NCBI GenBank assembly: GCA_014381725.1
Contig: JACNLC010000061.1
Coordinates: 2-64,001, forward strand
Reading direction: 5' to 3'
Length of the DNA: 64,000 bases
Source: Fidelibacterota bacterium
GTDB lineage: Bacteria; Fidelibacterota; Marinisomatia; SCGC-AAA003-L08; JACNLC01
The first letter of the stretch is position 1; the number at the start of each line of letters is the position of its first letter. Positions 12,847-47,175 of this stretch are shown one piece after another. A program made the position numbers and the translations under genes. Under the pieces are notes generated by a model. The model did not search any database, was not told where the DNA came from, and was given only the letters and a program-made list of their open reading frames with translations.

Positions 12847-12868
12847 CAAAAATAGATAAGGAAATAAA

Positions 12869-13626: not shown

Positions 13627-13677
13627 GCTTATATAGGAAAATTTATATGACAAAACGAAAAGTATAGAGGTTAATTC

Positions 13678-14955: not shown

Positions 14956-14958
14956 CTT

Positions 14959-26340: not shown

Positions 26341-26389
26341 GCAAAAAGCACCAAAAATTAAGGGAAATAATTGGTTAATTCTAACACTC

Positions 26390-28484: not shown

Positions 28485-29861
28485 TTATTGAATCTTGTAT
28501 TTTTTGATATAATGATTAAGCGAAGTTCGTGGTATTCCCAAGATTCTAGCAGCTTGGCTTCTGTTATTTTCAGAAGATACTAGGGCCTGCTCGATAACTT
28601 GTTTTTGAGTTTCGTGTAAGATATTCAATTTATCATCTGGATTAATTTTCACATTAAACAAATAAGAATTATCATTTGGTGGAGTAAGTTCCATATCTTG
28701 TCGCAAAATATCAGGTAATTTAAGTTCTTTTCCCTTTACCAATAACATAGCTCGTTCAATATAATTTCGTAACTCTCTTATATTGCCGTTCCACGAGTAA
28801 GTCAGCAAAAATGTTTCTGCGTCTTTGTCAATTTTATTTACAGATTTATTGAATATTTGATTAAACTCATCAATATAATATTTAGATAACAACAATATAT
28901 CTTCATGTCGGTTTTTTAGTGGAGGTAAAGCAATATGAGCAACATTCAACCTATAGTATAAATCAGAACGAAATTCTCTATTATTTACTTTTTCAATTAA
29001 ATCAGCATTAGTTGCTGCAACAAACCTTACATCAACCTTTTTAGGCTTAACTCCGCCAACTCTGTAAATCTGATTACTTTCCAAAAAATGCAAAAGTTTG
29101 GATTGTAAGTCTAGATTGAGATCACTTATTTCATCTAAGAGTAATGTTCCGTTATTTGCTAATTCGATTAATCCTTGTTTCCCAGATTGACTAGCACCAG
29201 TAAAAGCACCTTTCTCGTATCCAAATAGTTCACTTTCTAACAAATCTCTGGGAATTGCTGCACAATTTATTGATATGAAAGGACCATCAAATCTCGGGCT
29301 GGAAAAGTGTATATATTTTGCCAAATAACTTTTTCCTGTTCCTGTATCTCCTGTTAATAGAATGGTAGCGTCCGTATTTGCGTATTCTTTTGAAAGTTCA
29401 ACTACTTGTTTCATAAGAGAAGATTCTGCAACAATATTGGGTAAAGAAGCATCTTTACTACATTTTAACTTGAGTTCATTTACTTCTTTTTTTAGACGGA
29501 GCGTATCTAAAGCCCGTTGCACAGTGTATTTAATAAATTCAGAATTTTCTTCCTTTTGAATAAAATCGTATGCACCGTTTTTCATTGCTTCCACAGCCAA
29601 ATCAATTGTTCCATAAGCAGTTAAAATGATAAATGATGAGTTTGGATATTTCTCGTTAAATTCCTTCAAAACCGTAAGTCCGTCAGTTTCACCAAGTTGG
29701 TAATCTAGAAGAACTAAGTCAATTTCATTATTATCCATAACTTTCCGTGCTTCACAAATAGTTATTGCGGTATGAATAACTTTATCAGAATCTGCTAAAA
29801 CTCGTTTTATAGAATTACAAACAAGTTGTTCATCATCAAAAATTAATATGTTAAATTTCAT
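28485..29861 (-). CDS. Sigma-54-dependent response regulator (NtrC family)
   Basis: REC domain (DLVLLDYQL), AAA+ sigma-54 activator domain (GDTGTGKS, ESELFGYEKGAFTGA, GTLLLDEI) and a C-terminal Fis-type HTH (NRSQAARILGIPRTSL). Confidence 0.92.
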   Translation of the reverse strand: MKFNILIFDDEQLVCNSIKRVLADSDKVIHTAITICEARKVMDNNEIDLVLLDYQLGETDGLTVLKEFNEKYPNSSFIILTAYGTIDLAVEAMKNGAYDFIQKEENSEFIKYTVQRALDTLRLKKEVNELKLKCSKDASLPNIVAESSLMKQVVELSKEYANTDATILLTGDTGTGKSYLAKYIHFSSPRFDGPFISINCAAIPRDLLESELFGYEKGAFTGASQSGKQGLIELANNGTLLLDEISDLNLDLQSKLLHFLESNQIYRVGGVKPKKVDVRFVAATNADLIEKVNNREFRSDLYYRLNVAHIALPPLKNRHEDILLLSKYYIDEFNQIFNKSVNKIDKDAETFLLTYSWNGNIRELRNYIERAMLLVKGKELKLPDILRQDMELTPPNDNSYLFNVKINPDDKLNILHETQKQVIEQALVSSENNRSQAARILGIPRTSLNHYIKKYKIQ

Positions 29862-31759
29862 TTAATTAACCCCTGTTTATGTGGTAGAAAAATAAAGAAA
29901 GTTGTACCAAAGTCTTTTTCACTTTCTACATAATATTTAGCATTGTGTTGTTCCAAAATTCTCTGAACAATTGCAAGTCCTAGACCAGTACCATTGGTAA
30001 AAGTTGAGTAAAACGGATCATAAATTCTATCTAATTCCTCTGTTTCAATACCTATTCCTGTGTCCTGAATTGAAATTTTAATATGGTTTTTCATTAATTT
30101 GGATTCAATTGTAAGAGTTCCAGCATTTCCCATAGCATTCATTGCATTCATCATCAAATTTAAAAATACTTGTTCAAGCTGATGAGAATCTGCTTCAATT
30201 TGTGATATTTCATCGTGGAATTTTGTATCAATCCGAATTGATGATTTTTCATACTGTTTTTTGACTAGACTCAAACTTTTCTTGATTGATTCACGAATGT
30301 CTATAGATTTAAACTCAGGTTTATGTGGTTTTGAATAATCTAAAATAGTAGTAACAATTTTATGAATTCTTGTTACACTATCTTGTAATTCTGGGTAAAT
30401 TTCATCAAACTCGTCTGAATTTAAATTTTTATTCAGATAATCGAGATTGTTGTTCAGAGCAAAAAGTGGATTTCTAATTTCGTGAGCAATTCCGGAGGAT
30501 AATTGTCCCAAAGCGAACATCTTTTCAGTTTGGATTGCATATTTCTCGATTTGTTTTCTCTCGCTTATATCACGAATATAGATGAAAGTCAAATTCTCAG
30601 CTTCACCAAGAGATAACCCTTTGATTTTATAAATTTCGACATGTTTTTCAGTTGATTCTTTAGTAAGTAAAATAGCTTCAAAATGCTCTGAATCAGAGTT
30701 TGAAATATCTGAAATATGGTGGATTTTTTCTATATCAATTAAATCTGAAAAGTTACAGTTATGTAAATCTGATTCATTATAACCAGTTAGGTAAGACAAT
30801 TTTGGATTACTCTCAATAATTGTTCCATTTTGGAGTGTAATTGCAACAGCTTCGAGAGATTTCTCAATCAAGCTATGATATTTTTTCTCTGAATCCTTCA
30901 GCTTTTTAGTAAATGTGTTAATTCTTGAACTCATATCGTTTAATGTACGAGCTAAACTACCAATTTCATCATTTGAGCTTATTGGTAATTTCAAATGATA
31001 ATTATCATCCTTGAGAGCTTGAGCTGAATCTTCGATTTGTCGCAAAGGATGAATTACACTTTTACGGATTGCGATAAAAATCAAAACTCCTAATAGTCCA
31101 ATTGATAAACCACCTAAGCCGATAAGGAAAAGCACATTTGACGATCGAGCATTAAGGTAGGAATTTATTGAAAGTAAAATACTGATACCCCCGCGGATAT
31201 CTCCAACTTCATAACCCTGATAAGCGTGACAGCTCAAACAGGATTGCTGAGTATAAAGAGGAGTGAAATACCGGAAGTAATGTCTCCCGGAAATCTCCTC
31301 AATCTGAAAATATTCTCTATCGTCGGTCAAGAGTGAATCGCTATAAAAATTGAGGGCTGCTTGCTCAAAATGATCAGGTTTATTTTCCGGGTTAATATAT
31401 TTCTCACTCGCCATGTGATATGAAAAATCTCCATCGAGTTTATCGCTCAGTTCACTGAGTTCTCTTGTAACAAGTGCAGGATTTTTCAATAAAAGAGTAT
31501 CTCCACTCGAAGTAATCAATTCAGGATGAGGTAGAAATATGCTTGGTTCCATACCAGGTTTTTTCTTGACGAGAACTCCGTCGTGGTCAGATATCCATTT
31601 CCTTGTTATCAATACATTTTCTTTAATTGCACGAGCAGTAGTGAGAATACTCTCTTCACTTTGTCTGTTTACTCGCAAAATGAGTAGTGAGAAAATAACT
31701 GAAATAATACTTGTAACAAGTAACCCAACAATTAAAATAATTTTTGTAGTTAATCGCAT
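29858..31759 (-). CDS. Sensor histidine kinase with a periplasmic DUF3365/Tll0287-like haem-c sensor domain, HAMP, PAS, HisKA and HATPase
   Basis: Between two TM helices: ...LKNPALVTRE...INPENKPDHFEQAAL...YFRYFTPLYTQQSCLSCHAYQGYEVGDIRGGISI (one CxxCH). This is followed by HAMP, PAS, an H-box (SGIAHEIRNPL) and N/G boxes (NLMMNA, DTGIGI, GTGLGL). Confidence 0.88.
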   Translation of the reverse strand: MRLTTKIILIVGLLVTSIISVIFSLLILRVNRQSEESILTTARAIKENVLITRKWISDHDGVLVKKKPGMEPSIFLPHPELITSSGDTLLLKNPALVTRELSELSDKLDGDFSYHMASEKYINPENKPDHFEQAALNFYSDSLLTDDREYFQIEEISGRHYFRYFTPLYTQQSCLSCHAYQGYEVGDIRGGISILLSINSYLNARSSNVLFLIGLGGLSIGLLGVLIFIAIRKSVIHPLRQIEDSAQALKDDNYHLKLPISSNDEIGSLARTLNDMSSRINTFTKKLKDSEKKYHSLIEKSLEAVAITLQNGTIIESNPKLSYLTGYNESDLHNCNFSDLIDIEKIHHISDISNSDSEHFEAILLTKESTEKHVEIYKIKGLSLGEAENLTFIYIRDISERKQIEKYAIQTEKMFALGQLSSGIAHEIRNPLFALNNNLDYLNKNLNSDEFDEIYPELQDSVTRIHKIVTTILDYSKPHKPEFKSIDIRESIKKSLSLVKKQYEKSSIRIDTKFHDEISQIEADSHQLEQVFLNLMMNAMNAMGNAGTLTIESKLMKNHIKISIQDTGIGIETEELDRIYDPFYSTFTNGTGLGLAIVQRILEQHNAKYYVESEKDFGTTFFIFLPHKQGLIK

Positions 31760-31887: not shown

Positions 31888-31924
31888 CTGACCGTATATC
31901 GTCATCTGTTTTGTATATGGTCAG
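31888..31924. promoter_or_regulatory. Inverted repeat in the divergent control region
   Basis: CTGACCGTATA-N15-TATATGGTCAG, with 10 of 11 positions complementary. Confidence 0.3.
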
Positions 31925-32000: not shown

Positions 32001-32016
32001 TGGCAGGATATTTGCT
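32001..32016 (+). promoter_or_regulatory. Sigma-54 (-24/-12) promoter
   Basis: TGGCAG-GATAT-TTGCT matches TGGCAC-N5-TTGCW. It is 70 nt upstream of the porin ATG and divergent from an NtrC-type activator gene. Confidence 0.7.
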
Positions 32017-32085
32017 AATGAATATTGTGTAAAAAGCATCTTGTATGTTTTTTAAACTGTAAATAAAAAAGGAGAATAAACAGTT

Positions 32086-33441
32086 ATGATAAAGCGATTA
32101 ATAGTTATTGGAATATCAGCTTTGTTTATCAGTGGTGCTGTTGCCACAGATTTCAAAGTTGGTGGTGTTTACACAGCTTGGGCACAAAATCAAGTTGGTT
32201 TTACTTTTGACCAAGAAACTTACGATATGAATTATGTTGTTCAAATGCTAAGATTCAAAGTTCAAGGTATTGCAAACGAAAACTTGAAATTTGTAACTAG
32301 GTTTGATATGGCTCAAGGTTGGTGGGGCGTTGATAATATGCTCCGTGGCGTAGAGCGTTGGGAGAAAACAGGCGCAAGTAGTTTGTTTGACTTCAAAGAT
32401 ACAAACTATCTAATGCATATTGACCAAGCGTATGTTGATTTTAACTGGGATATTTACCACCCTTTAAATGTTAAAATTGGTCGTCAATGGTTTGGTTTGG
32501 GTAACAAACTAATGGTTGATAACAATTATGATGGTATTCAACTTAATGCTAAAGGTCTAACTCTCGGTTGGGCAAAGGTCTCCGAAGGAGCTGATAACAC
32601 AACGGATGTTGGTGCTCACAATGGTGATTCTGATTTATATTTAGGAAGTTATAAAAAGGCATTTGGTAATTTGGAATTGAATGCTTTTGGTTTTTATTAT
32701 AATGAAGCAATTACCCCTGACGATACAACAGCATATATTTTGGACGATTTGCAATTCTTCCGCAATAAGGATGCGGCTACTGTTACGCAACTGATGGCTG
32801 GTGGACTTGCTGGAAATTACAAAAAAGGTGCATTGACTGCTGATTTTGAATTTGATTATTTGATGGGCACAGACGGCATCAATGATTTGGATTTGACGGG
32901 TTTCAATTTGTACACTAAGGTAGGATATGCTGTAAGTGACAAACTAAAATTCGGTAGTATTTTTGGAATGGGTTCTGGCGATGATGCAAGTTCAGATGGC
33001 TTCACCAATGTGAATAAACTCCGAACCTCGGGTTTCTTCTATATGACAGAAATTTGGGAAGATTCCATTATGCCTGACGAAGAAGGAATTACACCACAAG
33101 GTCTGGGTGCGCCGAAAGTAAAAGCATATCGTGAACTTGAAAATACAACTATTTTTCAAGGAAATGTGGACTACAAAATCAGTGGTAACACATCATTATT
33201 TTTGAGCGGTAGTTACATTCAAGCAACAAGTGAAATCAAATCTGATACTGGTGAAGGTTCTCAAGATCTTGGAATGGAAGTGGACTTCCGCTTGAAACAT
33301 AACATCCAAAAGAATTTGTTTTTGATGCTTCGCGGTGGATATTTTATTCCGGGTGATGCAGCAGCCTATCTAGTGAATGGTCATAATGATTCATTAGATC
33401 CTGCTTATGAACTTAAAGGTATGGTTGTTTATAAATTCTAA
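32086..33441 (+). CDS. Outer-membrane beta-barrel porin-like protein
   Basis: Signal peptide (LIVIGISALFISGAVA), alternating beta-strand pattern, and a C-terminal aromatic residue (..GMVVYKF). Confidence 0.7.
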   Translation: MIKRLIVIGISALFISGAVATDFKVGGVYTAWAQNQVGFTFDQETYDMNYVVQMLRFKVQGIANENLKFVTRFDMAQGWWGVDNMLRGVERWEKTGASSLFDFKDTNYLMHIDQAYVDFNWDIYHPLNVKIGRQWFGLGNKLMVDNNYDGIQLNAKGLTLGWAKVSEGADNTTDVGAHNGDSDLYLGSYKKAFGNLELNAFGFYYNEAITPDDTTAYILDDLQFFRNKDAATVTQLMAGGLAGNYKKGALTADFEFDYLMGTDGINDLDLTGFNLYTKVGYAVSDKLKFGSIFGMGSGDDASSDGFTNVNKLRTSGFFYMTEIWEDSIMPDEEGITPQGLGAPKVKAYRELENTTIFQGNVDYKISGNTSLFLSGSYIQATSEIKSDTGEGSQDLGMEVDFRLKHNIQKNLFLMLRGGYFIPGDAAAYLVNGHNDSLDPAYELKGMVVYKF

Positions 33442-33453
33442 TTAGTTAATCGG

Positions 33454-33475
33454 TGGGGTGGCGTTCGTCACCCCA
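33454..33475 (+). other. Intercistronic hairpin between the porin and cytochrome genes (possible attenuator or mRNA stabiliser)
   Basis: TGGGGTG-N8-CACCCCA followed by TCATTTATT. Confidence 0.3.
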
Positions 33476-33497
33476 TCATTTATTAGAGGAACTTACA

Positions 33498-33881
33498 ATG
33501 AAATATTTTAAAAGTGGTTTAATCGGTAGTGTTTTAGCGTTGAGTTTAGTAGTATTTCTTATTTCTTGTGTTCAAACAGAATCACCCTCACTAGATTTAT
33601 CAAACAGAACTATACACCAAGAAGTTGATTTCGATATCAGCTGTATGGAATGCCACGAAGAAGTTACACCAGAAATCGTTGAGAATTGGGTAGAAAGTGG
33701 TCACGGAATATTGAATTATGGTTGTTATATTTGCCACGGAGATGGTTCAGTTGAATTTAATGTATTACCAAAAACAGATAATTGTATAGCATGCCATTCA
33801 TCAAGTGAAGGACATTTAATGCGAATGGAATATGAGGGCTGTTTTGATTGCCACGATGGACACACGCTAAGTGCACATTAA
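33498..33881 (+). CDS. Small tetrahaem c-type cytochrome lipoprotein (NapM-like by context)
   Basis: Four CxxCH motifs (CMECH, CYICH, CIACH, CFDCH) in about 100 aa, with a signal peptide and lipobox (FLISC). The ATG at 33498 is preceded by AGAGGA. Confidence 0.8.
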   Translation: MKYFKSGLIGSVLALSLVVFLISCVQTESPSLDLSNRTIHQEVDFDISCMECHEEVTPEIVENWVESGHGILNYGCYICHGDGSVEFNVLPKTDNCIACHSSSEGHLMRMEYEGCFDCHDGHTLSAH

Positions 33882-33912
33882 AAAATAATCAGTTTATAAA
33901 GAGGAGACAAAA

Positions 33913-36198
33913 ATGAAGAAAATATCAAGAAAAGAATTTATTAAAACATCAGCTGCAGTTTCTGCAGCCGCAGGTATAGGTGTTTCTCTATTTCCAGGAA
34001 TGACCTATGCAAAAAATTCCAGTAGTATGAATTGGCATAAATCAGTTTGTCGTTATTGTGGTGTAGGTTGTGGTGTAATGGTTGGTGAAAAAGATGGTAA
34101 AGTTGTAGCTGTGAAAGGTGATGAGTTGAACCCAATTAACAAAGGTCATCTTTGCGTGAAGTCACTTTATCTACCAAAAGCGATTAATTCCAAAACTCGT
34201 TTAGCTCATCCAATGATTCGCAAAAATGGTAAATTGGAGAAAGCATCTTGGGAAGAAGCATTGGATTTAGTTGCAAAGAAATTCAATCAAATACGTAAAG
34301 CTCACGGAGGAAATGCGTTAGCATTTTATGGTTCTGGTCAGGCAGAAACTGAAGAAACCTATATGGCTAACAAACTTTTCAAAGGTTGTATTGGTACCAA
34401 TAATGTAGAAGGAAATCCACGACTTTGCATGGCAAGTGCTGTAGGTGGTTATCTCACAAGTTTGGGTGCTGATGAGCCAGCGGGTCTTTACGAAGATATA
34501 GAAAAATCGGAAATGTTTTTACTTGTCGGTTCGAATACTGCTGAAGCACATCCGATTGTTTTTGAACGAATTATGCGTCATAAAAACAAAAATCCCAATG
34601 TGAAAATCGTAGTGATTGATCCAAGAAAAACTCCGACAGACCAAGTTGGAGATTTACATCTATTTCCGAATCCTGGTTTTGATCTAGCAATTTTCAATGC
34701 AATGGCTTTTGTTTTAATTAATGAGGGTTACGCAGATAAATCATTTGTTGAGAAACACACATTTATCAAGGATAATAAAAAGAACATTCACACATTTGAG
34801 GATTATAAAAAATTCCTCGAAGATTTTACTCCTGAAAAAGCGGAGAAAATTAGTGGAGTTCCTGCACAACAAATCATCAAAGCTGCAAGAATGTTTGGAA
34901 AAGCCAAGACTTCTATGTCGCTTTGGACAATGGGTTTGAATCAACGAATTGGTGGAGTTTGGGCAAATAATCTAATCCATAACTTACATTTGTTAACCGG
35001 CAAGATTGGTGTACCGGGCAGTGATTCCTTTTCATTAACTGGTCAGCCCAATGCCTGCGGAGGTGTTCGTGAAGGTGGTGGATTATGTCATCTATTACCG
35101 GGGCATCATTTAGTTGTTAAAGAAGCTCATCGTAAAAAGGTTGCAAAAGTTTGGGGAGTACCAGCGAGCAACATTCAACCGAAACCTGGTAAACATACTA
35201 TTGCGATGTTTTCTGCACTAAATGCGGGTGAAATCAAAGGTATCTACATTATGTGTACAAATCCTGCACATTCATTACCTAATTCCCGTAAATATTGGAA
35301 AGGTTTGAAAGAACAGTTTGTAGTTGTTGCAGAATCATTTTTCCCAACAATGACAACTGAATATGCCGATGTTGTGCTTCCAGCCGCATTTTGGACGGAA
35401 AAAGAAGGTGTTTACGGGTGTACAGAACGACGCTCTCAGTATATGCCTAAAGTGGTTGAACCACAAGGTGAAGCTATTTGGGATGCCTTTATACTTCGTG
35501 ATTTAGCAAAGAAAATGGGGTTTGATAAAGAATTTGCTAAATACGAAACTGCTGAAATTATGTGGGACGAATACCGAGGACTTACTGCAGGTAAAGATAT
35601 GAACTTAATGGGTGCACCATACAGTCGTTTGAAGAAAGTTCGTGGATTAACTTGGCCTGTGCCAACGGAAGACCATCCAGGAACTTACAAACGATTTACT
35701 GATGGTGACCCGATTTATGATTCTAAATGGTCAAGTAAAGCGAAGAGTGATGGACGAAGAATGTGGTTTTACGGTCCTAAAGCGAAAGATGGAAAAGCGA
35801 CTATCTGGATGAGACCACATAAAGACCCTGCTGAAGTACCAAGCAAGGAATATCCTTATGCTTTGACCACAGGTCGTGTATTGGAACATTGGCATACATT
35901 AACGATGACAGGAACTTCTCCACAACTAAATCGTGCAGTGCCAAAAGCGTATGTGGAAATTCATCCAAGCGATGCCAAAAAAGAAGGCATCAAAAATAAA
36001 GAAATGGTTTTGGTTGAATCTCCACGAGGTAAACTTGAAATTGAAGCTAGAGTCATTGACAGACCAATTCCAGGAACGATATTTGTACCTTGGCATTGGC
36101 CAGAATCTCCGATTAATGTGCTTTGTAATGATGCGTTTGATCCTGGTTCAAAAGAACCTGAATACAAAGTTGCAGCTGCGAAGATAACCAAAGCTTAA
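33913..36198 (+). CDS. napA: Periplasmic nitrate reductase catalytic subunit, monomeric type (molybdopterin oxidoreductase)
   Basis: Tat-like signal (SRKEFIKTSAAVSAAAGIG..TYA), [4Fe-4S] motif CRYCGVGCGV...C, Mo-ligand region NPRLCMASAVGGY, GSNTAEAHPI, and a C-terminal DPGSKEPEYKVAAAKI. A NapD gene is adjacent. Confidence 0.85.
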   Translation: MKKISRKEFIKTSAAVSAAAGIGVSLFPGMTYAKNSSSMNWHKSVCRYCGVGCGVMVGEKDGKVVAVKGDELNPINKGHLCVKSLYLPKAINSKTRLAHPMIRKNGKLEKASWEEALDLVAKKFNQIRKAHGGNALAFYGSGQAETEETYMANKLFKGCIGTNNVEGNPRLCMASAVGGYLTSLGADEPAGLYEDIEKSEMFLLVGSNTAEAHPIVFERIMRHKNKNPNVKIVVIDPRKTPTDQVGDLHLFPNPGFDLAIFNAMAFVLINEGYADKSFVEKHTFIKDNKKNIHTFEDYKKFLEDFTPEKAEKISGVPAQQIIKAARMFGKAKTSMSLWTMGLNQRIGGVWANNLIHNLHLLTGKIGVPGSDSFSLTGQPNACGGVREGGGLCHLLPGHHLVVKEAHRKKVAKVWGVPASNIQPKPGKHTIAMFSALNAGEIKGIYIMCTNPAHSLPNSRKYWKGLKEQFVVVAESFFPTMTTEYADVVLPAAFWTEKEGVYGCTERRSQYMPKVVEPQGEAIWDAFILRDLAKKMGFDKEFAKYETAEIMWDEYRGLTAGKDMNLMGAPYSRLKKVRGLTWPVPTEDHPGTYKRFTDGDPIYDSKWSSKAKSDGRRMWFYGPKAKDGKATIWMRPHKDPAEVPSKEYPYALTTGRVLEHWHTLTMTGTSPQLNRAVPKAYVEIHPSDAKKEGIKNKEMVLVESPRGKLEIEARVIDRPIPGTIFVPWHWPESPINVLCNDAFDPGSKEPEYKVAAAKITKA

Positions 36199-36218
36199 TA
36201 TTATTTGTGTGATAATTG

Positions 36219-36258
36219 CGGGGTGTTTGTTTTTTCCTATTGTTTGTCAAACACCCTG
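36219..36258 (+). other. Stem-loop after napA
   Basis: GGGTGTTTG (36221-36229) pairs with CAAACACCC (36248-36256) around an 18-nt loop. There is no clear U-tract. Confidence 0.3.
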
Positions 36259-36287
36259 TAATTTTAATAATTAACCAAAGTTATTTT

Positions 36288-36857
36288 ATGGATAAAAAAA
36301 CTCACACTGCTCTTTCGCGTAAATCATTTTTTAAGGAATTTGTTCAACATTTTTCTGAAGAAATGAAATTAGATACAAGTCAATACAACGAGATGTTTCA
36401 ATCGGTTACATTACCTCCAGGAGCAAAATCTGTCGAAGATTATATCGAAAAGTGTAACAAATGTTACGATTGTGTCTCGGTTTGTCCACATTCATCAATA
36501 AGAGTAAGACACGATGAAAATGAAAAATTATCAGGATTTCCAATTATTGAACCTAGATTGGAAACTTGTCAATTTTGCGATGATAGATTATGTGTTGAAT
36601 CTTGTAAAACTGATGCGTTATCAAGTAGCTTTCAAGATAATATTGTTTCGGAATTGAATATTGATAAAGAAATTTGTCATTCTTTCAATGAGCGACTTTG
36701 TTATACTTGTGTTACAAACTGTCCAAAAACCGGAGAAGCAATCGCAATGAATAAAAAAGGAAATCCTGAAATCAATAATGAGCTTTGTAATGGATGTGGA
36801 ATATGTATTCAAGTATGTCCAGCAGAAGAATCTGCAATCAAAATTAAATCATATTAG
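36288..36857 (+). CDS. napF: NapF-like cytoplasmic 4x[4Fe-4S] ferredoxin
   Basis: Vestigial Tat-like motif SRKSFFKEF with no hydrophobic region, an LPPGA motif, and four Cys clusters (CNKCYDCVSVCP, CQFCDDRLCVESC, C..CYTCVTNCP, CNGCGICIQVCP). The ATG at 36288 is preferred over 36216. Confidence 0.65.
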   Translation: MDKKTHTALSRKSFFKEFVQHFSEEMKLDTSQYNEMFQSVTLPPGAKSVEDYIEKCNKCYDCVSVCPHSSIRVRHDENEKLSGFPIIEPRLETCQFCDDRLCVESCKTDALSSSFQDNIVSELNIDKEICHSFNERLCYTCVTNCPKTGEAIAMNKKGNPEINNELCNGCGICIQVCPAEESAIKIKSY

Positions 36858-36868
36858 GAGAAAGAATT

Positions 36869-37114
36869 ATGGCAATCACAGGAGTAGTGATATTAGTAGA
36901 ACCAAACAAGGCAGAAGAGATTTTATACGAAGTGAGTCATTTAGATGATGTAACAACTTATGGATTACATAAAGAAAATAATATTGTAGCAGTTATTGAA
37001 GGTGAAAATTCCAAAAACCTAGAAAATAAAATTAACCAAATAAAAGATAAAATAGATGGAATTCTAGGAATATTTCCTGCTTATGCAAATTATGAAGAAG
37101 AGATAGACGAGTAA
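36869..37114 (+). CDS. napD: NapD-like Tat proofreading chaperone
   Basis: 81 aa, with ITGVVILVEPNKAEEI...NIVAVIEGEN matching the NapD ferredoxin-like fold pattern. It sits within the nap cluster. Confidence 0.75.
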   Translation: MAITGVVILVEPNKAEEILYEVSHLDDVTTYGLHKENNIVAVIEGENSKNLENKINQIKDKIDGILGIFPAYANYEEEIDE

Positions 37115-37119
37115 ACTAA

Positions 37120-37635
37120 ATGCTTTTTGAATGGATAAATAGAATTTCAAAACTTCATAATCCACTTCGCCCGCCCGGCGCAGTAAAGGAACATGAATTT
37201 GTTGATACCTGTATTCGCTGTAGAAAATGTGAAGAAGTTTGTCCATATCAATCCATAAAAATGTTAAATGGAGTACACGGAACTAAGATGGGAACTCCGG
37301 TAATTATATCGAGAGAAACACCTTGCTATCTATGTGAAGATTTCCCTTGTGTTGATGTTTGTCCGAGTGACGCTCTTAGACAAGTAAAAACAAATAAAGA
37401 TGTGAAAATGGGAATCGCTAAAATCGATAAAGATACCTGTTTTGCTTTTAACGGAATTTTGTGCAGAGCTTGTTTTGAACGATGTCCCATTTATCGAGAA
37501 GGTATTGTTATGGAAAATCAACTCTATCCTAAAGTTCAAGAAGAATATTGTGTTGGTTGTGGAATTTGTGAAAATGTTTGTCCTACTGAAAATGGTTCAA
37601 TCTTTGTGGAAAGCAGACATCCGATAGTTGTATGA
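37120..37635 (+). CDS. napG: NapG/MauM-like 4x[4Fe-4S] ferredoxin lacking an N-terminal Tat signal
   Basis: LRPPGAVKEHEFVDTCIRCRKCEEVCP, then CYLCEDFPCVDVCP, C..CRACFERCP and CVGCGICENVCP. An in-frame stop 3 nt upstream of the ATG excludes a longer N-terminus. Confidence 0.7.
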   Translation: MLFEWINRISKLHNPLRPPGAVKEHEFVDTCIRCRKCEEVCPYQSIKMLNGVHGTKMGTPVIISRETPCYLCEDFPCVDVCPSDALRQVKTNKDVKMGIAKIDKDTCFAFNGILCRACFERCPIYREGIVMENQLYPKVQEEYCVGCGICENVCPTENGSIFVESRHPIVV

Positions 37636-38501
37636 TGAATAATTTCACTTCCAATATACACTATTTTAGACGGATATCTCAAGTCCTCGCAATTGGATTA
37701 ATAATCATTATTCCGTTTTCTAATTTACTTGGTATCCATTGGGTTTCTGGTACTTTATACAGTATGAGTTTTGGCTCGCTCGATTTCTCTGACCCAAGTT
37801 TGATTTTGCAAACATTGGTTTTAGTTAAAAAGATTTCACTACCATTTTTTATATCGGGGATTATTCCATTATTGTTGGCAATGTTCTTAGGGAAAGTGTT
37901 TTGCAGTTGGATATGTCCATTTCATTTACTCTCTGAATGGGCTTACAAGTTAATTAAAAAAATCAAAAAGATATCTTCAACGGCTAACAAAAATCCAAAA
38001 CGAAATTTTAATTTAGTAATATTTTTTGGATTGTTATTATTCATATTTCTATCTGAAGTTCCAATATTCTCTTTGGTTTCTCTTCCTGGAATAATATCTT
38101 CTCAAGTTGCTGATTTAGTTATTATTAGAACATTAGGAATAGAGATATTTATTATAATTTTAGTTCTACTTTTGGAGATGTTTTCATTATCTCGTTTTTG
38201 GTGTAAATATGCTTGTCCCGTTGGTTTAAGTCTTGGATTAACTAAATTCAAAAATTCACTGAGTATTGTTTGTGACTCATCAAAATGTGGTAAATGCCCA
38301 CAGAGGAAGCAAAATCCCTGCAAAACAGCTTGTTCGTTCAATCTAAATCCAAAAGAATTAGGAATTTATCCAGTTTGCAACAATTGTATTGAATGCGTAT
38401 CAGTATGTAATGAAAATAATGGTGCTTTACAATTGACATTCAATTTAGTAAAAAAAACTAATATTAGAAATAAAAACAACAACCATAATAAAGGAGAATA
38501 A
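37632..38501 (+). CDS. napH: NapH-like membrane-bound iron-sulfur protein
   Basis: Four TM helices with two CxxxCP motifs (CSWICPF, CKYACPV) and a C-terminal Cys-rich Fe-S region (CGKCP..C, CNNCIECVSVC). There is a 4-nt overlap with the napG-like gene. Confidence 0.8.
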   Translation: MMNNFTSNIHYFRRISQVLAIGLIIIIPFSNLLGIHWVSGTLYSMSFGSLDFSDPSLILQTLVLVKKISLPFFISGIIPLLLAMFLGKVFCSWICPFHLLSEWAYKLIKKIKKISSTANKNPKRNFNLVIFFGLLLFIFLSEVPIFSLVSLPGIISSQVADLVIIRTLGIEIFIIILVLLLEMFSLSRFWCKYACPVGLSLGLTKFKNSLSIVCDSSKCGKCPQRKQNPCKTACSFNLNPKELGIYPVCNNCIECVSVCNENNGALQLTFNLVKKTNIRNKNNNHNKGE

Positions 38502-38504
38502 TCA

Positions 38505-38972
38505 ATGAAGAAAGGAGAAGGACAGAAGCAAAATCGAAAAGAATTCTTGAAGAAATTCGGGATATTTGGTGTTTTGATTTTGGCTGTCGGAAGTTTTGTC
38601 AAGAATCTGATTGTGTTCGTCTCTCCGGAAAGTAAAACTAAAAGTACACATCGATATTTAGTTGGTAAAAAAAGTGAGATATCGGTAGGAAAATCTAAGG
38701 AAATTTCAATTCAGGGTAAACCTGCTTTTGTGGTTCGATTAGATGAAGGTTTTAAAGTATTTTCCGGAGTATGTACTCATTTAGGATGTATTATCAAATG
38801 GGAAGAAAACAATAACAGATTCTTTTGCCCTTGCCATAATGGAGTTTTTGATAAAACAGGGAAAGTTGTTTCCGGACCACCACCTGAACCACTTAAAGAA
38901 TTTGAGGTAGAAGAAGACGGGAATTTGGTGTTTATTCAAGTTGAGGATAAACGGAAAGGACCTTGGGTATGA
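38505..38972 (+). CDS. Rieske [2Fe-2S] protein of a cytochrome bc-type complex
   Basis: Rieske boxes CTHLGC and CPCHNG. N-terminal RKEFLKK is followed by a TM helix (Tat-type anchor). Confidence 0.9.
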   Translation: MKKGEGQKQNRKEFLKKFGIFGVLILAVGSFVKNLIVFVSPESKTKSTHRYLVGKKSEISVGKSKEISIQGKPAFVVRLDEGFKVFSGVCTHLGCIIKWEENNNRFFCPCHNGVFDKTGKVVSGPPPEPLKEFEVEEDGNLVFIQVEDKRKGPWV

Positions 38973-40006
38973 GTGCAAAAGAATGGATAAACGAACGATT
39001 TCCAATTAAAGGGAAATCTTTGACAGAGACACTTTTAAAGGAAGAAATTCCTATACATATGAAAAAGTGGTTATTTGCAATGGGAACAACGCCATTTATA
39101 TTGTTTCCTCTTCAGATAATTACAGGTATGTTACTTGCTTTCTATTTCATTCCGTCGACGGAAATGGCATTCGAAAGTGTTCGATATATTACTGAAGAAG
39201 TAAGAATGGGATTTTGGATAAGAGGAATTCATCATTGGGGAGCGAATTTAATGGTGATTTCAATATTCCTGCATATGATGAGAGTATTCTTTACACATTC
39301 CTATAGAAAACCTCGTGAATTGAATTGGGTAGTTGGGTTTGTACTATTATTTTTAACCTTAACCATTTCATTTACAGGTTATTCTCTGACTTACAATCAA
39401 GTATCATTTTGGGCTGCAACGGTAGGAACTAATTTAGTAAAGGAAGTTCCATTTATTGGTACAGCTCTTTTAGAAATGATGCGAGGTGGTGGGGATGTAA
39501 CAATAAATACTCTAACTCGGTTTTACACACTTCATGTGTGGTTACTTCCGATAATTATAACTTTGATAGTTGTATTCCACATTGTGATGATAAGGTTGCA
39601 CGGTATTTCTGAACCAAAGGAATTTGAAAAAGGACATTACGAATTTTATCCGAATCATTTGTATAAAATTATTATCGTAACTCTTTTTCTAATTTCATTT
39701 TTGAGTCTGATGGCAGTCTTGTTACCTCCTGGGTTAGGGGAGCCTGCAGACCCGGCGAATACTCCGTTGCATATCAAACCCGAATGGTACTTTTTCCCAG
39801 TATTCTTATTTTTAAGATTAGTACCGTTAAGTGTGGGGTTATCGTTAACAGGTTTAGCGGTTTTACTAATGACATTCTGGCCATTTTTTGAAACATTGTT
39901 TTCTAAAAATGAGAAAACGAGAAATGTAATTAGCAGAATAGTTGGAAGTATAGCAATCATAATTTTGATTGTATTTACAATTATCGAATCATTTTCACTC
40001 ATTTAA
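38969..40006 (+). CDS. Cytochrome b (fused b6-like N-terminal domain plus subunit IV-like C-terminal domain)
   Basis: Haem-ligand helices (GIHHWGANLMV..FLHMMRVF; YTLHVWLLP..FHIVMIRLHG) and Qo-site PEWYFFP. The ATG at 38969 overlaps the Rieske stop (ATGA). Confidence 0.9.
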   Translation: MSAKEWINERFPIKGKSLTETLLKEEIPIHMKKWLFAMGTTPFILFPLQIITGMLLAFYFIPSTEMAFESVRYITEEVRMGFWIRGIHHWGANLMVISIFLHMMRVFFTHSYRKPRELNWVVGFVLLFLTLTISFTGYSLTYNQVSFWAATVGTNLVKEVPFIGTALLEMMRGGGDVTINTLTRFYTLHVWLLPIIITLIVVFHIVMIRLHGISEPKEFEKGHYEFYPNHLYKIIIVTLFLISFLSLMAVLLPPGLGEPADPANTPLHIKPEWYFFPVFLFLRLVPLSVGLSLTGLAVLLMTFWPFFETLFSKNEKTRNVISRIVGSIAIIILIVFTIIESFSLI

Positions 40007-40030
40007 AAATTAAAAAGGAAAGGAAATTCT

Positions 40031-41647
40031 ATGAAAAATGTGAAAATACAACAATGGTTAATAGGCATATTTAGCGTATTGCTTATAGGAAGTCTAATGA
40101 TAGTCGCAAGTGTAGAAATTAAAAGAACATCAGGTGATTCTCACGAAATTGATGTTGATGAAATTTCAGCAAGATGTATAAAGTGCCACGAAAAAGAAAA
40201 CATAGCTGTTAAACAAGTACATGCTTGGGAAGAAAGTATGCACGCTTTAAAAGGCATTGGATGTTATGAATGTCACGAAGCTCAAAAAGATGACTTTGAT
40301 GCATTCTATTGCGAAAGTAGTGACTTATTGGTTGCACGACATCCCACACCGAAAGATTGTTCGGAATGCCACGAAAAAGAAGTCGCTGAGTTTGCTAATA
40401 GCAAACACGCACATCAATTTTGGTTATTTGCAAATGCAGACAGAGCAACATTTGAAATGCCGATTGCAACTCGACACGGATGCGAAGAATGCCACCAAAT
40501 CGGTAATCTTTGGCCTGATGGTAGTGTTGGGGAATGCGATGCTTGTCACAGTAAACACTCATTCAGTATGGAAGTTGCAAGACAACCGGAAACTTGTGGT
40601 GAATGTCATATTGGTCCGGACCATCCGCATATTGAGATTTATAATGAATCCAAACACGGAAACATTTTCAAGGCGAGAGGTAAACATTGGGATATGAATT
40701 ACAACACTACTAACAATGAAGAAATACCTTTTGAAGCACCAGTTTGTGTTACTTGCCATATGGACGGAAATGAAACTCAACCTATGACGCACGATGTTAG
40801 TGCTCGTTTGGCATGGGAATCGCAAGCACCGTGGAGTTATCGCACGGTTTGGGATGAAGAAAATTTGGGTAGTTGGGATGTAAAACGCGGTAGAATGGAA
40901 GCTATTTGCAATTCTTGTCACGCGCCAGATTTTGTGGATGTATATTTTCTAACGGCTGACTTGGTGAATTTGCAATACAATGAAATCCGTCGAGAGTTTG
41001 TCTATTGGACGCAAAAACTGACAGCAGACGGCACAATTGACCGTCTTGAAAAAGATGGAAAATTCTATTCCAATCCAGTTATCAGTGGTTGGGATGAAAA
41101 ACCAGAGGAATTGATGTATTATGCGTGGCATCACGAAGGTCGTCGTTTCCGTCATGGTGCACTTATGATGGGAGCAGACTTTACTCAGTGGCATGGAATT
41201 TGGGAAATCCAAGAAGATATGGTTGAACTAATTACTTGGGCAGCAGAACACGGCGATCACGAGGCTGAAAAATGGGTTAATTCAAATGATCCTGCAAAAT
41301 TTCGCCCCTATGCATTGTATGATATTCCGGGAAATGAATGGGGTATAAATGCAAAAGCAAATACAACACCATTTGTTTATAACAATCATCCAGATTATTG
41401 GGAGCGTGTGTATAAAAATGTAAAAAAAGCATACGACGAAGGTTTGCTCACAAGAGACCAATGGAATTTGTGGTTAAATCGTTACGAAAACAAAGACCAT
41501 TTTCTTGGATTAAAGTATACAAACGATGCTAAAGTTGATTCAACTTGGAACTTTTATAAAGATAGAAATGCTATTGATAAAGAAGCATTCATCAAGCAAG
41601 CTGTTAAATTAGATTTACCGGGGAAATCATTCTACGATGATAAGTAG
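40031..41647 (+). CDS. Octahaem c-type cytochrome of the hydroxylamine oxidoreductase (HAO) family
   Basis: Eight CxxCH motifs. Blocks are collinear with HAO: CEECH..CDACHSKHSFSMEVARQPETCGECHIGPDHPHIEIYNESKHG, APVCVTCHMDG, ICNSCHAPDF. An N-terminal hydrophobic anchor or signal is present. Confidence 0.85.
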   Translation: MKNVKIQQWLIGIFSVLLIGSLMIVASVEIKRTSGDSHEIDVDEISARCIKCHEKENIAVKQVHAWEESMHALKGIGCYECHEAQKDDFDAFYCESSDLLVARHPTPKDCSECHEKEVAEFANSKHAHQFWLFANADRATFEMPIATRHGCEECHQIGNLWPDGSVGECDACHSKHSFSMEVARQPETCGECHIGPDHPHIEIYNESKHGNIFKARGKHWDMNYNTTNNEEIPFEAPVCVTCHMDGNETQPMTHDVSARLAWESQAPWSYRTVWDEENLGSWDVKRGRMEAICNSCHAPDFVDVYFLTADLVNLQYNEIRREFVYWTQKLTADGTIDRLEKDGKFYSNPVISGWDEKPEELMYYAWHHEGRRFRHGALMMGADFTQWHGIWEIQEDMVELITWAAEHGDHEAEKWVNSNDPAKFRPYALYDIPGNEWGINAKANTTPFVYNNHPDYWERVYKNVKKAYDEGLLTRDQWNLWLNRYENKDHFLGLKYTNDAKVDSTWNFYKDRNAIDKEAFIKQAVKLDLPGKSFYDDK

Positions 41648-41698
41648 ATTTTGCTTCGTTCAATTATTTGGACAGCAGTAAATTACATAAGTAAAAAT

Positions 41699-41724
41699 GC
41701 GGAGGTTGTTGATGCAACCTCCGC
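41699..41724 (+). terminator. Perfect 10-bp stem-loop at the end of the respiratory operon (terminator or processing site, no clear U-tract)
   Basis: GCGGAGGTTG-TTGATG-CAACCTCCGC, followed by AAAACTCC. Confidence 0.35.
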
Positions 41725-41810
41725 AAAACTCCGAGTTATTTTTCCTACTTTCAATGAATATGGAAAAGTAACCGATAGGGTGAAATGGGAAACGATTTTA
41801 CCTCCCGAAC
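41725..41810 (+). promoter_or_regulatory. Candidate molybdenum cofactor (Moco) riboswitch
   Basis: CTCCGAG ... GGAAAAG ... CCGATAGGGTGAAATGGGAAAC ... CCTCCC lies directly 5' of moaA. This resembles, from memory, the conserved blocks of the Moco RNA motif. Confidence 0.5.
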
Positions 41811-42851
41811 TTGGAAAGGAGATTTGAAATAATTTTACAAACAAAAAATAATTCCTATAATGGAATTTCTAAACAACTCAGCGATAACTTCGGAAGGAAG
41901 ATTACATATCTGCGTGTAGCAATTACAGACCGTTGTAACTTGCGATGCAAATATTGTATGCCCGAAAATGGTATCCAATCAATCCCACACGAAAATGTTT
42001 TAACTTTTGAAGAACATCTAAGAATAATCCGATTGTCTTCAAAATTTGGTGTTAACAAAATAAGAGTTACTGGAGGAGAACCATTTGTTAGAAAAGGTAT
42101 AATCAAGTTCTTGCGAGATGTTAAACAAATTTCTGGAATTGAGAACATACACATAACAACTAATGGAATTAGCACATCTAAGTTTGCAGATGTGTTAAAT
42201 GAAATCGGAATTTCCGGAATTAATTTAAGCCTCGATACTTTGGATGAACAGAGATTCCATAAAATTACACGCCGAGATTTATTCGCAAATGTATGGAAAT
42301 CAATACAAAAAATAATTGAGTTAGAAATTCCGTTAAAAATCAATGCTGTTATTCAAAATGATTTCAACACCGATGAAATCATACCATTAGCAAATTTAGC
42401 TAAAGAATATCCGATTGATGTCCGATTTATTGAAGAAATGCCTTTTAATGGGACTGGAAAATTTACTTCAAAACCGTTCACAGGGAAACAGATTTATCAA
42501 ACTTTAGAGGAAGAATATCCAGACATAGAGCAAATTCTGAATAATGGTTCTACAGCTAAAATGTATAAAATTCCTGAGTTTACTGGAAAAGTTGGAATTA
42601 TAGGAGCATACTCGCGAACCTTTTGCTCCGCTTGTAATCGAATTCGATTAACATCAACTGGAATGCTAAAAACCTGTTTATACGATGATGGAATACTAAA
42701 CTTGAAAGATTTGTTGAGAAGTAATGCATCGGATAGTGATATTATAAGAGAAATCCAAAATAGTATTGGAAACCGAAATAAAGATGGATTTGTGTCTGAA
42801 TCTTTGAAAAAAACGAAAAACTATAATGCAATGGTGAACATTGGGGGATAA
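41811..42851 (+). CDS. moaA: GTP 3',8-cyclase (radical SAM, Moco biosynthesis)
   Basis: YLRVAITDRCNLRCKYCMP, RVTGGEP, and a C-terminal CSACNRIRLTSTGMLKTCL. The start is uncertain (TTG 41811, or ATA 41829 located 7 nt after AGGAG). Confidence 0.9.
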   Translation: MERRFEIILQTKNNSYNGISKQLSDNFGRKITYLRVAITDRCNLRCKYCMPENGIQSIPHENVLTFEEHLRIIRLSSKFGVNKIRVTGGEPFVRKGIIKFLRDVKQISGIENIHITTNGISTSKFADVLNEIGISGINLSLDTLDEQRFHKITRRDLFANVWKSIQKIIELEIPLKINAVIQNDFNTDEIIPLANLAKEYPIDVRFIEEMPFNGTGKFTSKPFTGKQIYQTLEEEYPDIEQILNNGSTAKMYKIPEFTGKVGIIGAYSRTFCSACNRIRLTSTGMLKTCLYDDGILNLKDLLRSNASDSDIIREIQNSIGNRNKDGFVSESLKKTKNYNAMVNIGG

Positions 42852-46626: not shown

Positions 46627-47175
46627 TTAATAGTTATTCAACTTCTCAAAATCTTCAGGTGAATTTACATTTAAAAATTGTGATGATAATGCATCTGCAT
46701 TGACTGTTCTAGAAGGATGATTACTGATAAAATCCATCAACTTGTAATTTCCATTTTGTAAATTCTTTTCCAAATCTTCGGTGAGTGATTTATGATACAA
46801 TGCACACATTGGTTGAAGTCTATCCTTTACGGTTGGAATTATTATTTTTACCTTGTCAGAAATAGTCTGAGTTAACAAATTTACTGTTTCTTTTCCGACC
46901 ATAGGCATATCAACTGCTACGAATAAATTCCAATCTGATTTAGTTGAAGATAATCCTGTATAAATGCCTGTCATCGGACATTGAGTTTCTATTTTGTCAG
47001 GTAAGAATGGCAGTTTTGAGTGAGTTCGTATTTTCCCGATAATTGTTACATTATCAAACAAAGTTTCTAAGCGATTATATAGTATTTTGGTGAAAGTTAA
47101 ATCCTCAATTGTTGCAATTGATTTGTCAGAGCCGAATCGTCGGCTTTGTCCACCGGTAAGAATATATGCGTTCAT
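46627..47175 (-). CDS. mobA: Molybdenum cofactor guanylyltransferase
   Basis: N-terminal YILTGGQSRRFGSDK, followed by VAVDMP. Confidence 0.85.
   Translation of the reverse strand: MNAYILTGGQSRRFGSDKSIATIEDLTFTKILYNRLETLFDNVTIIGKIRTHSKLPFLPDKIETQCPMTGIYTGLSSTKSDWNLFVAVDMPMVGKETVNLLTQTISDKVKIIIPTVKDRLQPMCALYHKSLTEDLEKNLQNGNYKLMDFISNHPSRTVNADALSSQFLNVNSPEDFEKLNNY

Follow-up and report, generated by a model that had tools for sequence, protein, structure and literature searches.

A nap, Rieske/cytochrome b and octahaem cytochrome gene cluster in a Candidatus Marinimicrobia bacterium, a predicted module for nitrate respiration to ammonium

How nitrite is converted to ammonium without NrfA, and how energy is coupled to Nap and Hao, which are not electrogenic, are standing questions. 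Both are raised by a cluster of ten genes in a 64,000-nt stretch of DNA (the window) from a Candidatus Marinimicrobia (Neomarinimicrobiota) bacterium, listed as Fidelibacterota in the GTDB (GenBank assembly GCA_014381725.1, contig JACNLC010000061.1, positions 2 to 64,001 of the forward strand). The cluster joins a periplasmic nitrate reductase (NapA) and its partners to a Rieske protein, a cytochrome b and an octahaem cytochrome c of the HAO family, and it is a widely conserved candidate for a dedicated Rieske/cytochrome b quinol oxidase that works with NapA and an HAO-type reductase. We read it, with a probability of about 0.65, as a respiratory module for the dissimilatory reduction of nitrate to ammonium (DNRA). 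The matter bears on whether nitrogen is kept in or lost from anoxic marine waters and sediments, habitats in which Marinimicrobia and Calditrichota abound.

Both the cluster type and the hypothesis have been published before, and the window is a new phylum-level member. An earlier note on this DNA, made from the sequence without database searches, could not say whether the gene combination had been described; the novelty it implied does not stand, as a 2017 paper on Caldithrix abyssi set out this synteny together with the hypothesis (PMC5317091). New here are the triad of Rieske, cytochrome b and octahaem genes as a conserved module in Neomarinimicrobiota, Calditrichota, KSB1 and Ignavibacteria, also without nap; a membrane anchor on the octahaem that correlates with Rieske/cytochrome b adjacency; a conserved architecture of sigma-54 promoter and upstream activating sequence (UAS); and a molybdenum cofactor (Moco) riboswitch at the 3' boundary. 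A literature search, with many subscription journals outside it, returned no description of the cluster in Marinimicrobia or of eHao together with a Rieske protein beyond Caldithrix, and no account of how widely the triad is distributed or of its anchor, regulators and link to the riboswitch.

NapA, the octahaem cytochrome and the genes between them

Ten co-oriented open reading frames (ORFs) were confirmed on the + strand between 32086 and 41647, in the order porin, NapM, NapA, NapF-like ferredoxin, NapD, NapG-like ferredoxin, NapH, Rieske protein, cytochrome b and HAO-family octahaem, with families assigned by Pfam, NCBIfam and PDB searches. Start codons were revised for napM (ATG at 33498, 127 amino acids), the first ferredoxin (ATG at 36288, 189 amino acids) and cytochrome b (ATG at 38969, 345 amino acids), and the revised starts agree with the genes called publicly on the 169-kb contig to which the window corresponds (ENA ERZ24794647, NODE_295). 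The nine junctions, recomputed in order as 56, 31, 89, 11, 5, -4, 3, -4 and 24 nt, bear out a ten-ORF unit with junctions from a 4-nt overlap to an 89-nt gap, as the earlier note had described it, and all the motifs quoted there were found in the sequence.

The molybdoenzyme (33913 to 36198, +) is a monomeric, Desulfovibrio-type NapA by both PDB and NCBIfam comparison. It aligned end-to-end with D. desulfuricans NapA (2JIO/2NAP) over residues 39-761 with 792 bits, versus 509 bits for E. coli NapA and 445 bits for FdhF, which places it within NapA as had been proposed. The NCBIfam model for NapA likewise scored best (671 bits), followed by Fdh-alpha (583) and NasC (474), all of these under their curated equivalog cut-offs, and a Nas or Fdh identity was ruled out by the NapA-best scores in the two databases. 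The [4Fe-4S] motif CRYCGVGCGV and NPRLCMASAVGGY are identical in alignment to those of the D. desulfuricans enzyme, the molybdenum-ligand Cys is present in NPRLCMASAVGG, and NPRLCMASAV was also found. The partner set of this NapA within the window consists of the tetrahaem NapM, with no NapB.

Among window ORFs of at least 90 amino acids, CxxCH motifs are carried only by a sensor kinase (one), NapM (four) and the octahaem (eight). By this count none of NapC, NrfH, NrfA, NapB and NirS is encoded in the 64-kb window. The absence of NapC, NrfH, NrfA and NirS claimed earlier therefore stands by CxxCH counts, while the part of that claim on NirK had no dedicated screen.

The octahaem cytochrome (40031 to 41647, +) is of the reductive, eHao-like type, with eight CxxCH motifs, an N-terminal membrane anchor and a clade-specific C-terminal region of ~130 amino acids, and it is 100% identical to a protein annotated from a Candidatus Marinimicrobia/Neomarinimicrobiota metagenome-assembled genome. 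Its sequence relatives in the PDB were solely members of the HAO family (Ignicoccus IhOCC, kustc0458 or HAOr, KsHOX, Brocadia HOX, HDH and NeHAO), with IhOCC as the best match (identity ~20%) and kustc0458 as the second (~21%). When an AlphaFold model (pLDDT 82, pTM 0.83) was submitted to Foldseek, the top eight hits were all of the HAO family with a probability of 1.0; the TM-scores were low (~0.3), as expected with a haem-free model. With only HAO-family proteins among the PDB matches, by sequence or by Foldseek, the earlier assignment to this family held, and an identity as Otr, ONR or MccA was rejected.

Across 55 homologues the eight CxxCH motifs and D197-H198 are invariant. The GPDHPH of the octahaem aligned to GVDHNN of NeHAO, GIDHDE of KsHOX and GPDHPD of kustc0458, which marks it as the distal Asp-His pair, and the invariance of this pair argues for a catalytic protein over a pure electron carrier. 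At the position of the cross-link Tyr of NeHAO (Tyr467 in the mature protein, Tyr491 in the precursor) the octahaem has either Phe373 or Gln386, neither of them a Tyr. The Phe373 register was given by MAFFT in three modes and puts the residue inside a long helix of the model; the Gln386 register, a loop-to-loop alignment via IhOCC, puts it in an inter-helix turn and is favoured by the AF2 secondary structure. The NeHAO reference sequence for this comparison was validated only in part, by its length of 570, fragment positions 99, 163 and 398, eight CxxCH motifs and a Tyr at 491. HMMER alignments of the octahaem end at about residue 381-403, short of the NeHAO Tyr position, and its C-terminal 238 amino acids alone gave no PDB match. 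The Caldithrix orthologue, 71% identical, was reported to be without the cross-link Tyr (PMC5317091), and HAOs without the cross-link behave as reductases (PMC8042395). Without the oxidative Tyr cross-link and with the Asp-His pair kept, the octahaem is predicted to reduce nitrite, most likely to ammonium.

The kinship with kustc0458 allows a different product. The octahaem could be an NO-forming nitrite reductase, like HAOr or the HAO-like subunit proposed for the anammox complex Kuste4569-4574, in a module that feeds denitrification or NO-dependent chemistry; kustc0458 is the second-best PDB match, HAOr forms NO from nitrite when supplied with physiological donors (PMC8042395), and an anammox Rieske/cytochrome b complex with an HAO-like octahaem has been proposed to do the same (PMC12954380). 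We consider this unlikely, since identity to kustc0458 is only ~21% and genes for NO or N2O reductases are absent from the window, which encodes no other cytochromes c. For the eHao enzymes of Campylobacterota and for an octahaem of Beggiatoa, reduction of nitrite to ammonium is cited. The original species description of C. abyssi reportedly gave ammonium as the measured end product of nitrate reduction. The C. abyssi genome paper also assigns the step from nitrite to ammonia to the orthologous eHao (PMC5317091).

The C-terminal part of the octahaem sets its clade apart. At 50% clustering, residues ~405-538 aligned only within the octahaem's own clade and with one other representative, the other HAO-family representatives ending near residue 405, and this extension is helical and confidently modelled. 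A role as docking domain for the Rieske/cytochrome b pair was ruled out by stand-alone homologues from Desulfuromonadales and Deferribacter that match to residue 538.

The remaining nap-associated genes complete the unit. The first gene encodes an outer-membrane porin (32086 to 33441, +; related to Alginate_exp and the Desulfovibrio-type trimeric porin by Pfam and NCBIfam), and a porin gene is also first in nearly all related loci. NapM (33498 to 33881, +) is a tetrahaem c-type cytochrome with four CxxCH motifs, a lipoprotein LISC lipobox and Pfam matches to cytochrome c3/c7. The NapF-like poly-[4Fe-4S] ferredoxin (36288 to 36857, +) has a vestigial sequence, SRKSFFKEF, that resembles a twin-arginine translocation (Tat) motif and is followed by no hydrophobic h-region; the motif is kept as SRK in 15 of 19 orthologues, and where the cluster occurs in KSB1 and Ignavibacteria it is without this gene. 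It is followed by the chaperone NapD (36869 to 37114, +; Pfam NapD, E = 2e-11) and by a four-cluster ferredoxin without a signal peptide (37120 to 37635, +), which by HMM is the closer of the two ferredoxins to NapG (NCBIfam NapG 157 bits, under the cut-off). NapH (37632 to 38501, +), the membrane quinol dehydrogenase subunit, has CSWICP, CKYACP and a C-terminal Fe-S motif.

Both Tat substrates of the cluster carry an R-K motif, SRKEFIK in NapA (33913-33950) and NRKEFLK in the Rieske protein (38505-38560), and a tatC gene lies in the same window (62647-63393). The NapA orthologues have R-R in 35 of 35 cases. The R-K form in both substrates may reflect a lineage-specific relaxation or a co-variation of Tat recognition.

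The Rieske, cytochrome b and octahaem triad across genomes

The Rieske [2Fe-2S] protein (38505 to 38972, +) contains CTHLGC at residue 90, CPCHNG at residue 108 and the disulfide cysteines, and its best PDB matches are b6f-type and Kuenenia Rieske proteins. A transmembrane segment follows its N-terminal Tat motif, which reads R-R in 53 of 55 orthologues. In bc1 and b6f Rieske proteins a Ser and a Tyr raise the potential, and the Rieske protein of the window is without both. Its box II is CPCHNGVF in place of CPCHGSxY, and from what is generally known of bc1 Rieske proteins this hints at a centre of low potential, adapted to menaquinol. Cytochrome b (38969 to 40006, +) is a fusion of b6 and subunit IV with ~7 transmembrane segments (Cytochrome_B and Cytochrom_B_C domains); its haem ligands, His90/His104 and His191/His206, have the b6-type 14/15 spacing, and PEWY stands at residue 273. 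The protein contains no Cys and therefore no haem ci site. No gene for a third subunit of c1, f or dihaem c type was found in the window, in which the sole adjacent cytochrome c is the anchored octahaem.

One genome per species was scanned with the family alignment, and 80 loci were scored for the window's proteins. The contiguous arrangement porin-napM-napA-(ferredoxin)-napD-napG-napH-Rieske-cytochrome b-octahaem was present at 24 loci from Neomarinimicrobiota, Calditrichota (including a C. abyssi metagenome-assembled genome, MAG), KSB1 and others. At ten loci, mainly from Ignavibacteria and Melioribacteraceae, the triad is followed by kinase and activator genes and then by a separate porin-nap unit, and at seven, mainly from Thermodesulfobacteriota, there is no NapA within 7-10 kb of the triad. 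The contig was too short to judge nap at another 25 triad loci from various groups. The octahaem gene was without adjacent Rieske/cytochrome b genes at nine loci (Desulfuromonadales, Deferribacter and others) and could not be judged at five, from various groups, where it lies at a contig edge. Because cytochrome b is encoded directly upstream of the octahaem in 66 of the 75 judgeable loci, the triad is the conserved core of the cluster, and the attachment of nap is lineage-specific.

The anchor follows the same division. An N-terminal transmembrane helix (…WLIGIFSxLLIV…VAGVEMKK), lying 48-54 residues ahead of haem 1, is conserved in all 61 triad-linked octahaems scored, while most of the nine stand-alone octahaems, including those of all Desulfuromonadales-type and Deferribacter loci, have a cleavable signal peptide (…SAYA|). 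That the sequence of this helix is conserved from phylum to phylum suggests that it packs specifically against a partner in the membrane, and this indirectly favours the octahaem as a subunit of the Rieske/cytochrome b complex.

The position of the octahaem gene directly after cytochrome b, in the place of a cytochrome c subunit, together with the conserved anchor and the lack of a monohaem cytochrome c encoded nearby, would also suit a protein that mainly substitutes for cytochrome c1/f, as an electron relay between the Rieske protein and NapM and NapA in a module that leaves nitrite unreduced. We regard such a role as very improbable. The Asp-His pair, which adjoins the sixth CxxCH motif (C189-H193), does not vary within the family, which argues for catalysis, and the triad occurs without nap in the seven loci mentioned above, at one of them by an HPP-family gene, and should therefore have a function independent of NapA.

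In a bolder proposal, the triad would be a self-contained, three-subunit menaquinol:nitrite oxidoreductase, with the membrane-anchored octahaem in place of c1/f and a Q-cycle that makes nitrite ammonification directly electrogenic. It would be controlled by a dedicated kinase of the Tll0287 type, and only some phyla would have it joined to nap. This is tentative, and we would sooner bet against it than for it. If the octahaem were such a catalytic third subunit, the triad would be a new class of Rieske/cytochrome b complex outside anammox bacteria and the "missing" energy-conserving nitrite reductase of NrfA-less Neomarinimicrobiota, Calditrichota, KSB1, Ignavibacteria and Thermodesulfobacteriota. 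Its genes would be a DNRA marker set overlooked by nrfA-based surveys, and the 2017 Caldithrix proposal would extend to a widespread, modular, catalytic bc-type complex.

Several of the loci show variant surroundings. In a nap-less triad locus (L081), genes for an HPP-family membrane protein (14415-14966, -) and a PilJ-domain chemoreceptor (12703-14367, +) are nearby. The HPP family contains nitrite transporters, and we take this HPP protein to be a putative one; these neighbours are consistent with a triad function centred on nitrite. In two Candidatus Kryptonia loci (L039, 3233-6700, and L041), genes like napG and napH and one for a molybdoenzyme only 33% identical to the window's NapA come before the triad, and moaA, moaCB and moeA come after it, an arrangement shared with the window on that side. 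At another locus (L007, upstream of 7875) napH, Rieske, cytochrome b and octahaem genes are present at 67-75% identity, with no match to NapA, NapM or the porin in the 7.8 kb upstream; here the cluster may have been rearranged or have decayed.

A proposed electron route and its known relatives

The functional reading offered in the earlier note, from nitrate to nitrite to ammonium with Rieske/cytochrome b as quinol oxidase, is reasonable and is supported by the NapA and HAO-family assignments. We infer the following scheme. A kinase with a haem-c Tll0287-like domain would phosphorylate an NtrC-type activator, which would bind tandem TGAC-N8-GTCA sites and fire the sigma-54 promoter 5' of the porin gene. 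Nitrate and nitrite would enter through the porin, and NapA, matured by NapD and NapF, would turn nitrate into nitrite on the periplasmic side, receiving its electrons directly from the lipoprotein NapM. Menaquinol would be oxidised by the Rieske/cytochrome b pair, from which electrons would pass through the Rieske centre to the anchored octahaem, to reduce nitrite, most likely to ammonium, and would also reach NapA through NapM. The octahaem is probably the third subunit in place of cytochrome c1/f, and a Q-cycle in such a complex would make the periplasmic reduction of both nitrate and nitrite electrogenic, which Nap and Hao alone are not. NapGH would be a second, possibly cytoplasm-facing, quinol-linked module, and a riboswitch-controlled operon downstream would provide molybdate and the bis-molybdopterin guanine dinucleotide (bis-MGD) cofactor to NapA. 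In the earlier note the Rieske/cytochrome b pair would replace NapC/NrfH as the point of electron entry. We keep its role as a quinol oxidase, but because NapGH is retained, the pair would be an additional or alternative oxidase and not a simple replacement.

Several points weigh against respiration to ammonium by this route. The main uncertainty is the product, as sequence cannot decide between ammonium and NO, and the closest cross-link-less HAO that has been assayed, Kuenenia HAOr, yields NO with physiological donors (PMC8042395). The Tyr comparison leans on a partly validated NeHAO sequence, and its alignment register is ambiguous. The retained NapGH could itself oxidise quinol on behalf of NapA, and the complex of octahaem and Rieske/cytochrome b is predicted from gene adjacency and the conserved anchor. 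NrfA, NirS or NirK may be encoded elsewhere in the genome, of which the window covers 64 kb, and the hairpins after the porin gene and napA, described below, may split or attenuate the transcript. Finally, the cluster type is known from its genes, and the activity of all its members is a predicted one.

Another role for the octahaem would be detoxification, that is, the scavenging of hydroxylamine or NO formed as by-products of Nap, outside energy-conserving respiration. HAO-family reductases do reduce NH2OH and NO in vitro (PMC8042395), and the proposed reverse-HURM pathway, as cited in PMC6896113, has free hydroxylamine. A dedicated Rieske/cytochrome b pair, a sigma-54 promoter shared with nap and conservation across phyla fit a main respiratory route better, and hcp was not recognised in the window, for which the ORF list and CxxCH counts were consulted without a systematic screen. 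Detoxification is in our view the least probable of the roles considered.

The closest known relative of the cluster is that of C. abyssi. Kublanov et al. 2017 described Cabys_2564-2556 as napM, napA, napG, …, napH, Rieske, cytochrome b and eHao, noted the absence of NapB, NapC and NrfAH in this organism, which grows by nitrate reduction, and proposed that Rieske/cytochrome b oxidises quinol and donates electrons to NapM and/or directly to eHao, generating a proton-motive force (PMC5317091). Its nine genes run in the order of those in the window, namely napM, napA, ferredoxin, napD, ferredoxin, napH, Rieske, cytochrome b and eHao, and in the C. abyssi MAG (L026) the layout is also the same, with an octahaem 71% and a NapA 75% identical to those of the window. 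The window differs in belonging to Neomarinimicrobiota and not Calditrichota, in a -12 promoter half of TTGC versus TTGA or TTGT, and in Tat motifs of NapA and the Rieske protein that are R-K in place of R-R. The porin gene, the sigma-54 and UAS elements, the Tll0287 kinase and the Moco riboswitch lie outside the description in the C. abyssi paper (PMC5317091).

The napMADGH clusters with hao of D. desulfuricans and Deferribacteres share with the window a monomeric NapA, NapM, NapD, NapG, NapH, the lack of NapB and an HAO-type octahaem beside nap that was proposed as nitrite reductase (PMC6896113). They are without Rieske/cytochrome b, D. desulfuricans has NapC, and the Deferribacter octahaem (L078) has a cleavable signal peptide where that of the window has a transmembrane anchor. 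In Campylobacterota the eHao genes are said to be paired with a tetrahaem quinol dehydrogenase of the NapC/NrfH type and not with Rieske/cytochrome b. The eHao of Campylobacterota (Haase et al. 2017) and IhOCC (PDB 4QO5) are, like the octahaem of the window, HAO-family proteins without the Tyr cross-link, and both are cited as having nitrite or hydroxylamine reductase activity; at 50% clustering the window's clade forms a cluster separate from them, with an extra ~130 amino acids at the C-terminus.

The anammox operon Kuste4569-4574 resembles the triad in combining a b6-like Rieske/cytochrome b with an HAO-like octahaem, Kuste4574, proposed to reduce nitrite, and its subunits have all been found to co-migrate experimentally (PMC12954380). 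It differs in two added subunits, an NAD(P) oxidoreductase and another protein with six or eight haems, neither of which is encoded between or beside the triad genes of the window, and also in its split b6 and subunit IV (fused in the window), its anammoxosome location and NO as its proposed product. The Qcr complexes of Campylobacter and Wolinella follow the same principle, with Rieske/cytochrome b, and not NapC, feeding periplasmic N-oxide reductases electrogenically (Garg 2018 and Hein 2017, as cited in PMC6896113). Qcr is encoded in a housekeeping operon unlinked to nap and has a dihaem cytochrome c subunit, whereas the pair in the window is embedded in nap-hao and has no c1-type subunit. 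The pMHC of cable bacteria is linked to nap and not to Rieske/cytochrome b.

Promoter, transcript structure and neighbouring genes

The genes for the kinase and the activator lie on the upstream side of the cluster and are divergent from it. The activator (28485 to 29861, -) is an NtrC-type, sigma-54-dependent response regulator (receiver, Sigma54_activat AAA+ and HTH_8 domains by Pfam), a homologue of which adjoins the cluster in many related loci. The sensor histidine kinase (29858 to 31759, -) has an extracytoplasmic Tll0287-like haem-c domain (Pfam PF11845, E = 4.5e-22; one CxxCH) followed by HAMP, PAS, HisKA and HATPase domains. A Tll0287-type kinase is also divergent from the nap-less triad of L081 (6424-8112), there with an OmpR-type regulator. 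The occurrence of the kinase with a triad without nap suggests a signal tied to nitrite, NO or redox state rather than to nitrate.

A sigma-54 type -24/-12 element, TGGCAGGATATTTGCT, lies at 32001 to 32016 (+), 70 nt 5' of the porin start codon. It is the single match to TGGCAG-N5-TTGCT in the window, and by itself the match is weak, being expected by chance in 24% of shuffled windows. A putative enhancer (UAS) at 31889 to 31923 consists of the palindrome TGACCGTATATCGTCA (31889-31904), the sole strict TGAC-N8-GTCA in the window, and a degenerate copy, GTTTTGTATATGGTCA (31908-31923), 19 nt downstream. Of 35 related loci, 29 have TGGYAY-N5-TTGN on the upstream side of the porin gene, at a distance of 60-220 nt (background 1.7%), and 19 have TGAC-N8-GTCA, which precedes the -24/-12 element by ~110 nt (2.5% of background windows), often as a tandem pair 19 nt apart; the element and the palindromes occur together in 19 of the 35 versus 0.2% of the background. 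Because both recur at orthologous positions, the predicted control of the unit by sigma-54 and an enhancer-binding protein is well supported. The earlier proposal of a sigma-54-driven unit thus draws support from the conservation of both the promoter element and the upstream palindromes and from the NtrC-type activator encoded next to the cluster.

The strict pattern TGGCA-N6-TTGCW misses the Calditrichota loci, where intergenic inspection found a -12 half of TTGA or TTGT. The same -12 half, in place of the canonical TTGC with its GC dinucleotide, is present in Calditrichota, KSB1 and related loci (L012, L014-L016, L018, L020, L022, L023, L026, L008, L028 and L073), with the TGGCA or TGGTA of the -24 half and the spacing kept. 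It could reflect a lineage-specific sigma-54 preference or a different sigma factor.

The hairpins within the cluster raise the question of whether one transcript covers it. In the porin-napM gap a GC-rich hairpin followed by AUUUAUU (33452 to 33477, +; region -24.5 kcal/mol, z = -5.2) is a possible partial terminator or stabiliser, and the 89-nt gap between napA and the ferredoxin contains a 16-bp hairpin (36215 to 36262, +; region -23.7 kcal/mol, z = -4.2). These two make a single uniform transcript a putative one. The ten genes might instead form separate porin, napMA and napF-to-hao transcripts, with the sigma-54 element driving the porin alone; apart from the strength of the hairpins, the first of them before a T-rich tract, this would agree with the split Ignavibacteria loci, where triad and nap stand apart as two units and a -24/-12-like element belongs to each, the second lying 5' of the Rieske gene. 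We think this arrangement rather unlikely for the window. Inside the cluster no further -24/-12 element was found save one relaxed-pattern match at 41189 within the octahaem gene, the junctions from napD to hao measure -4 to 24 nt, and the gene order is kept across at least three phyla. The 3-nt gap between napH and the Rieske gene and the overlap between the Rieske and cytochrome b genes leave no room for a terminator or promoter.

At the 3' end a stable hairpin of 10-12 bp follows the octahaem gene (41698 to 41725, +; region -31.6 kcal/mol, z = -6). The stem noted earlier is real, but it is not a clean terminator: no U-tract was found downstream of it on the + strand, its 3' arm overlaps the start of a riboswitch, and a simple intrinsic terminator is unsupported. 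The riboswitch is a Moco aptamer at 41717 to 41837 (+), matched over the full-length model of Rfam RF01055 with 78 bits against a gathering threshold of 36 (E = 3e-17). It also overlaps the mechanically listed TTG start of moaA, the true start of which is at about 41958. Placed directly upstream of moaA, it ties an operon for Moco biosynthesis and molybdate uptake physically to the nap cluster. From there to 46626 (+) Pfam and the public gene calls give moaA, a MOT1-type molybdate transporter, a moaC-moaB/mog fusion, moeA and a MOSC protein, and a convergent gene (46627 to 47175, -) encodes a MobA-like nucleotidyl transferase (Pfam NTP_transf_3) for the guanylylation step to bis-MGD. The moa genes could be transcribed either by read-through from nap-hao or from a promoter of their own. 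With sensor, activator, structural genes and cofactor supply side by side, the region is a self-contained nitrate-respiration island.

Elsewhere in the window, a cobalamin riboswitch (RF00174, 49.8 bits; 26240-26370, -) lies upstream of a gene for a TonB-dependent receptor (24142-26220, -), which is followed by one for a protein sorted by the type IX secretion system (T9SS; 22850-24127, -). A tRNA gene (Rfam tRNA, 66 bits; 12773-12846, +) lies amid a run of housekeeping genes.

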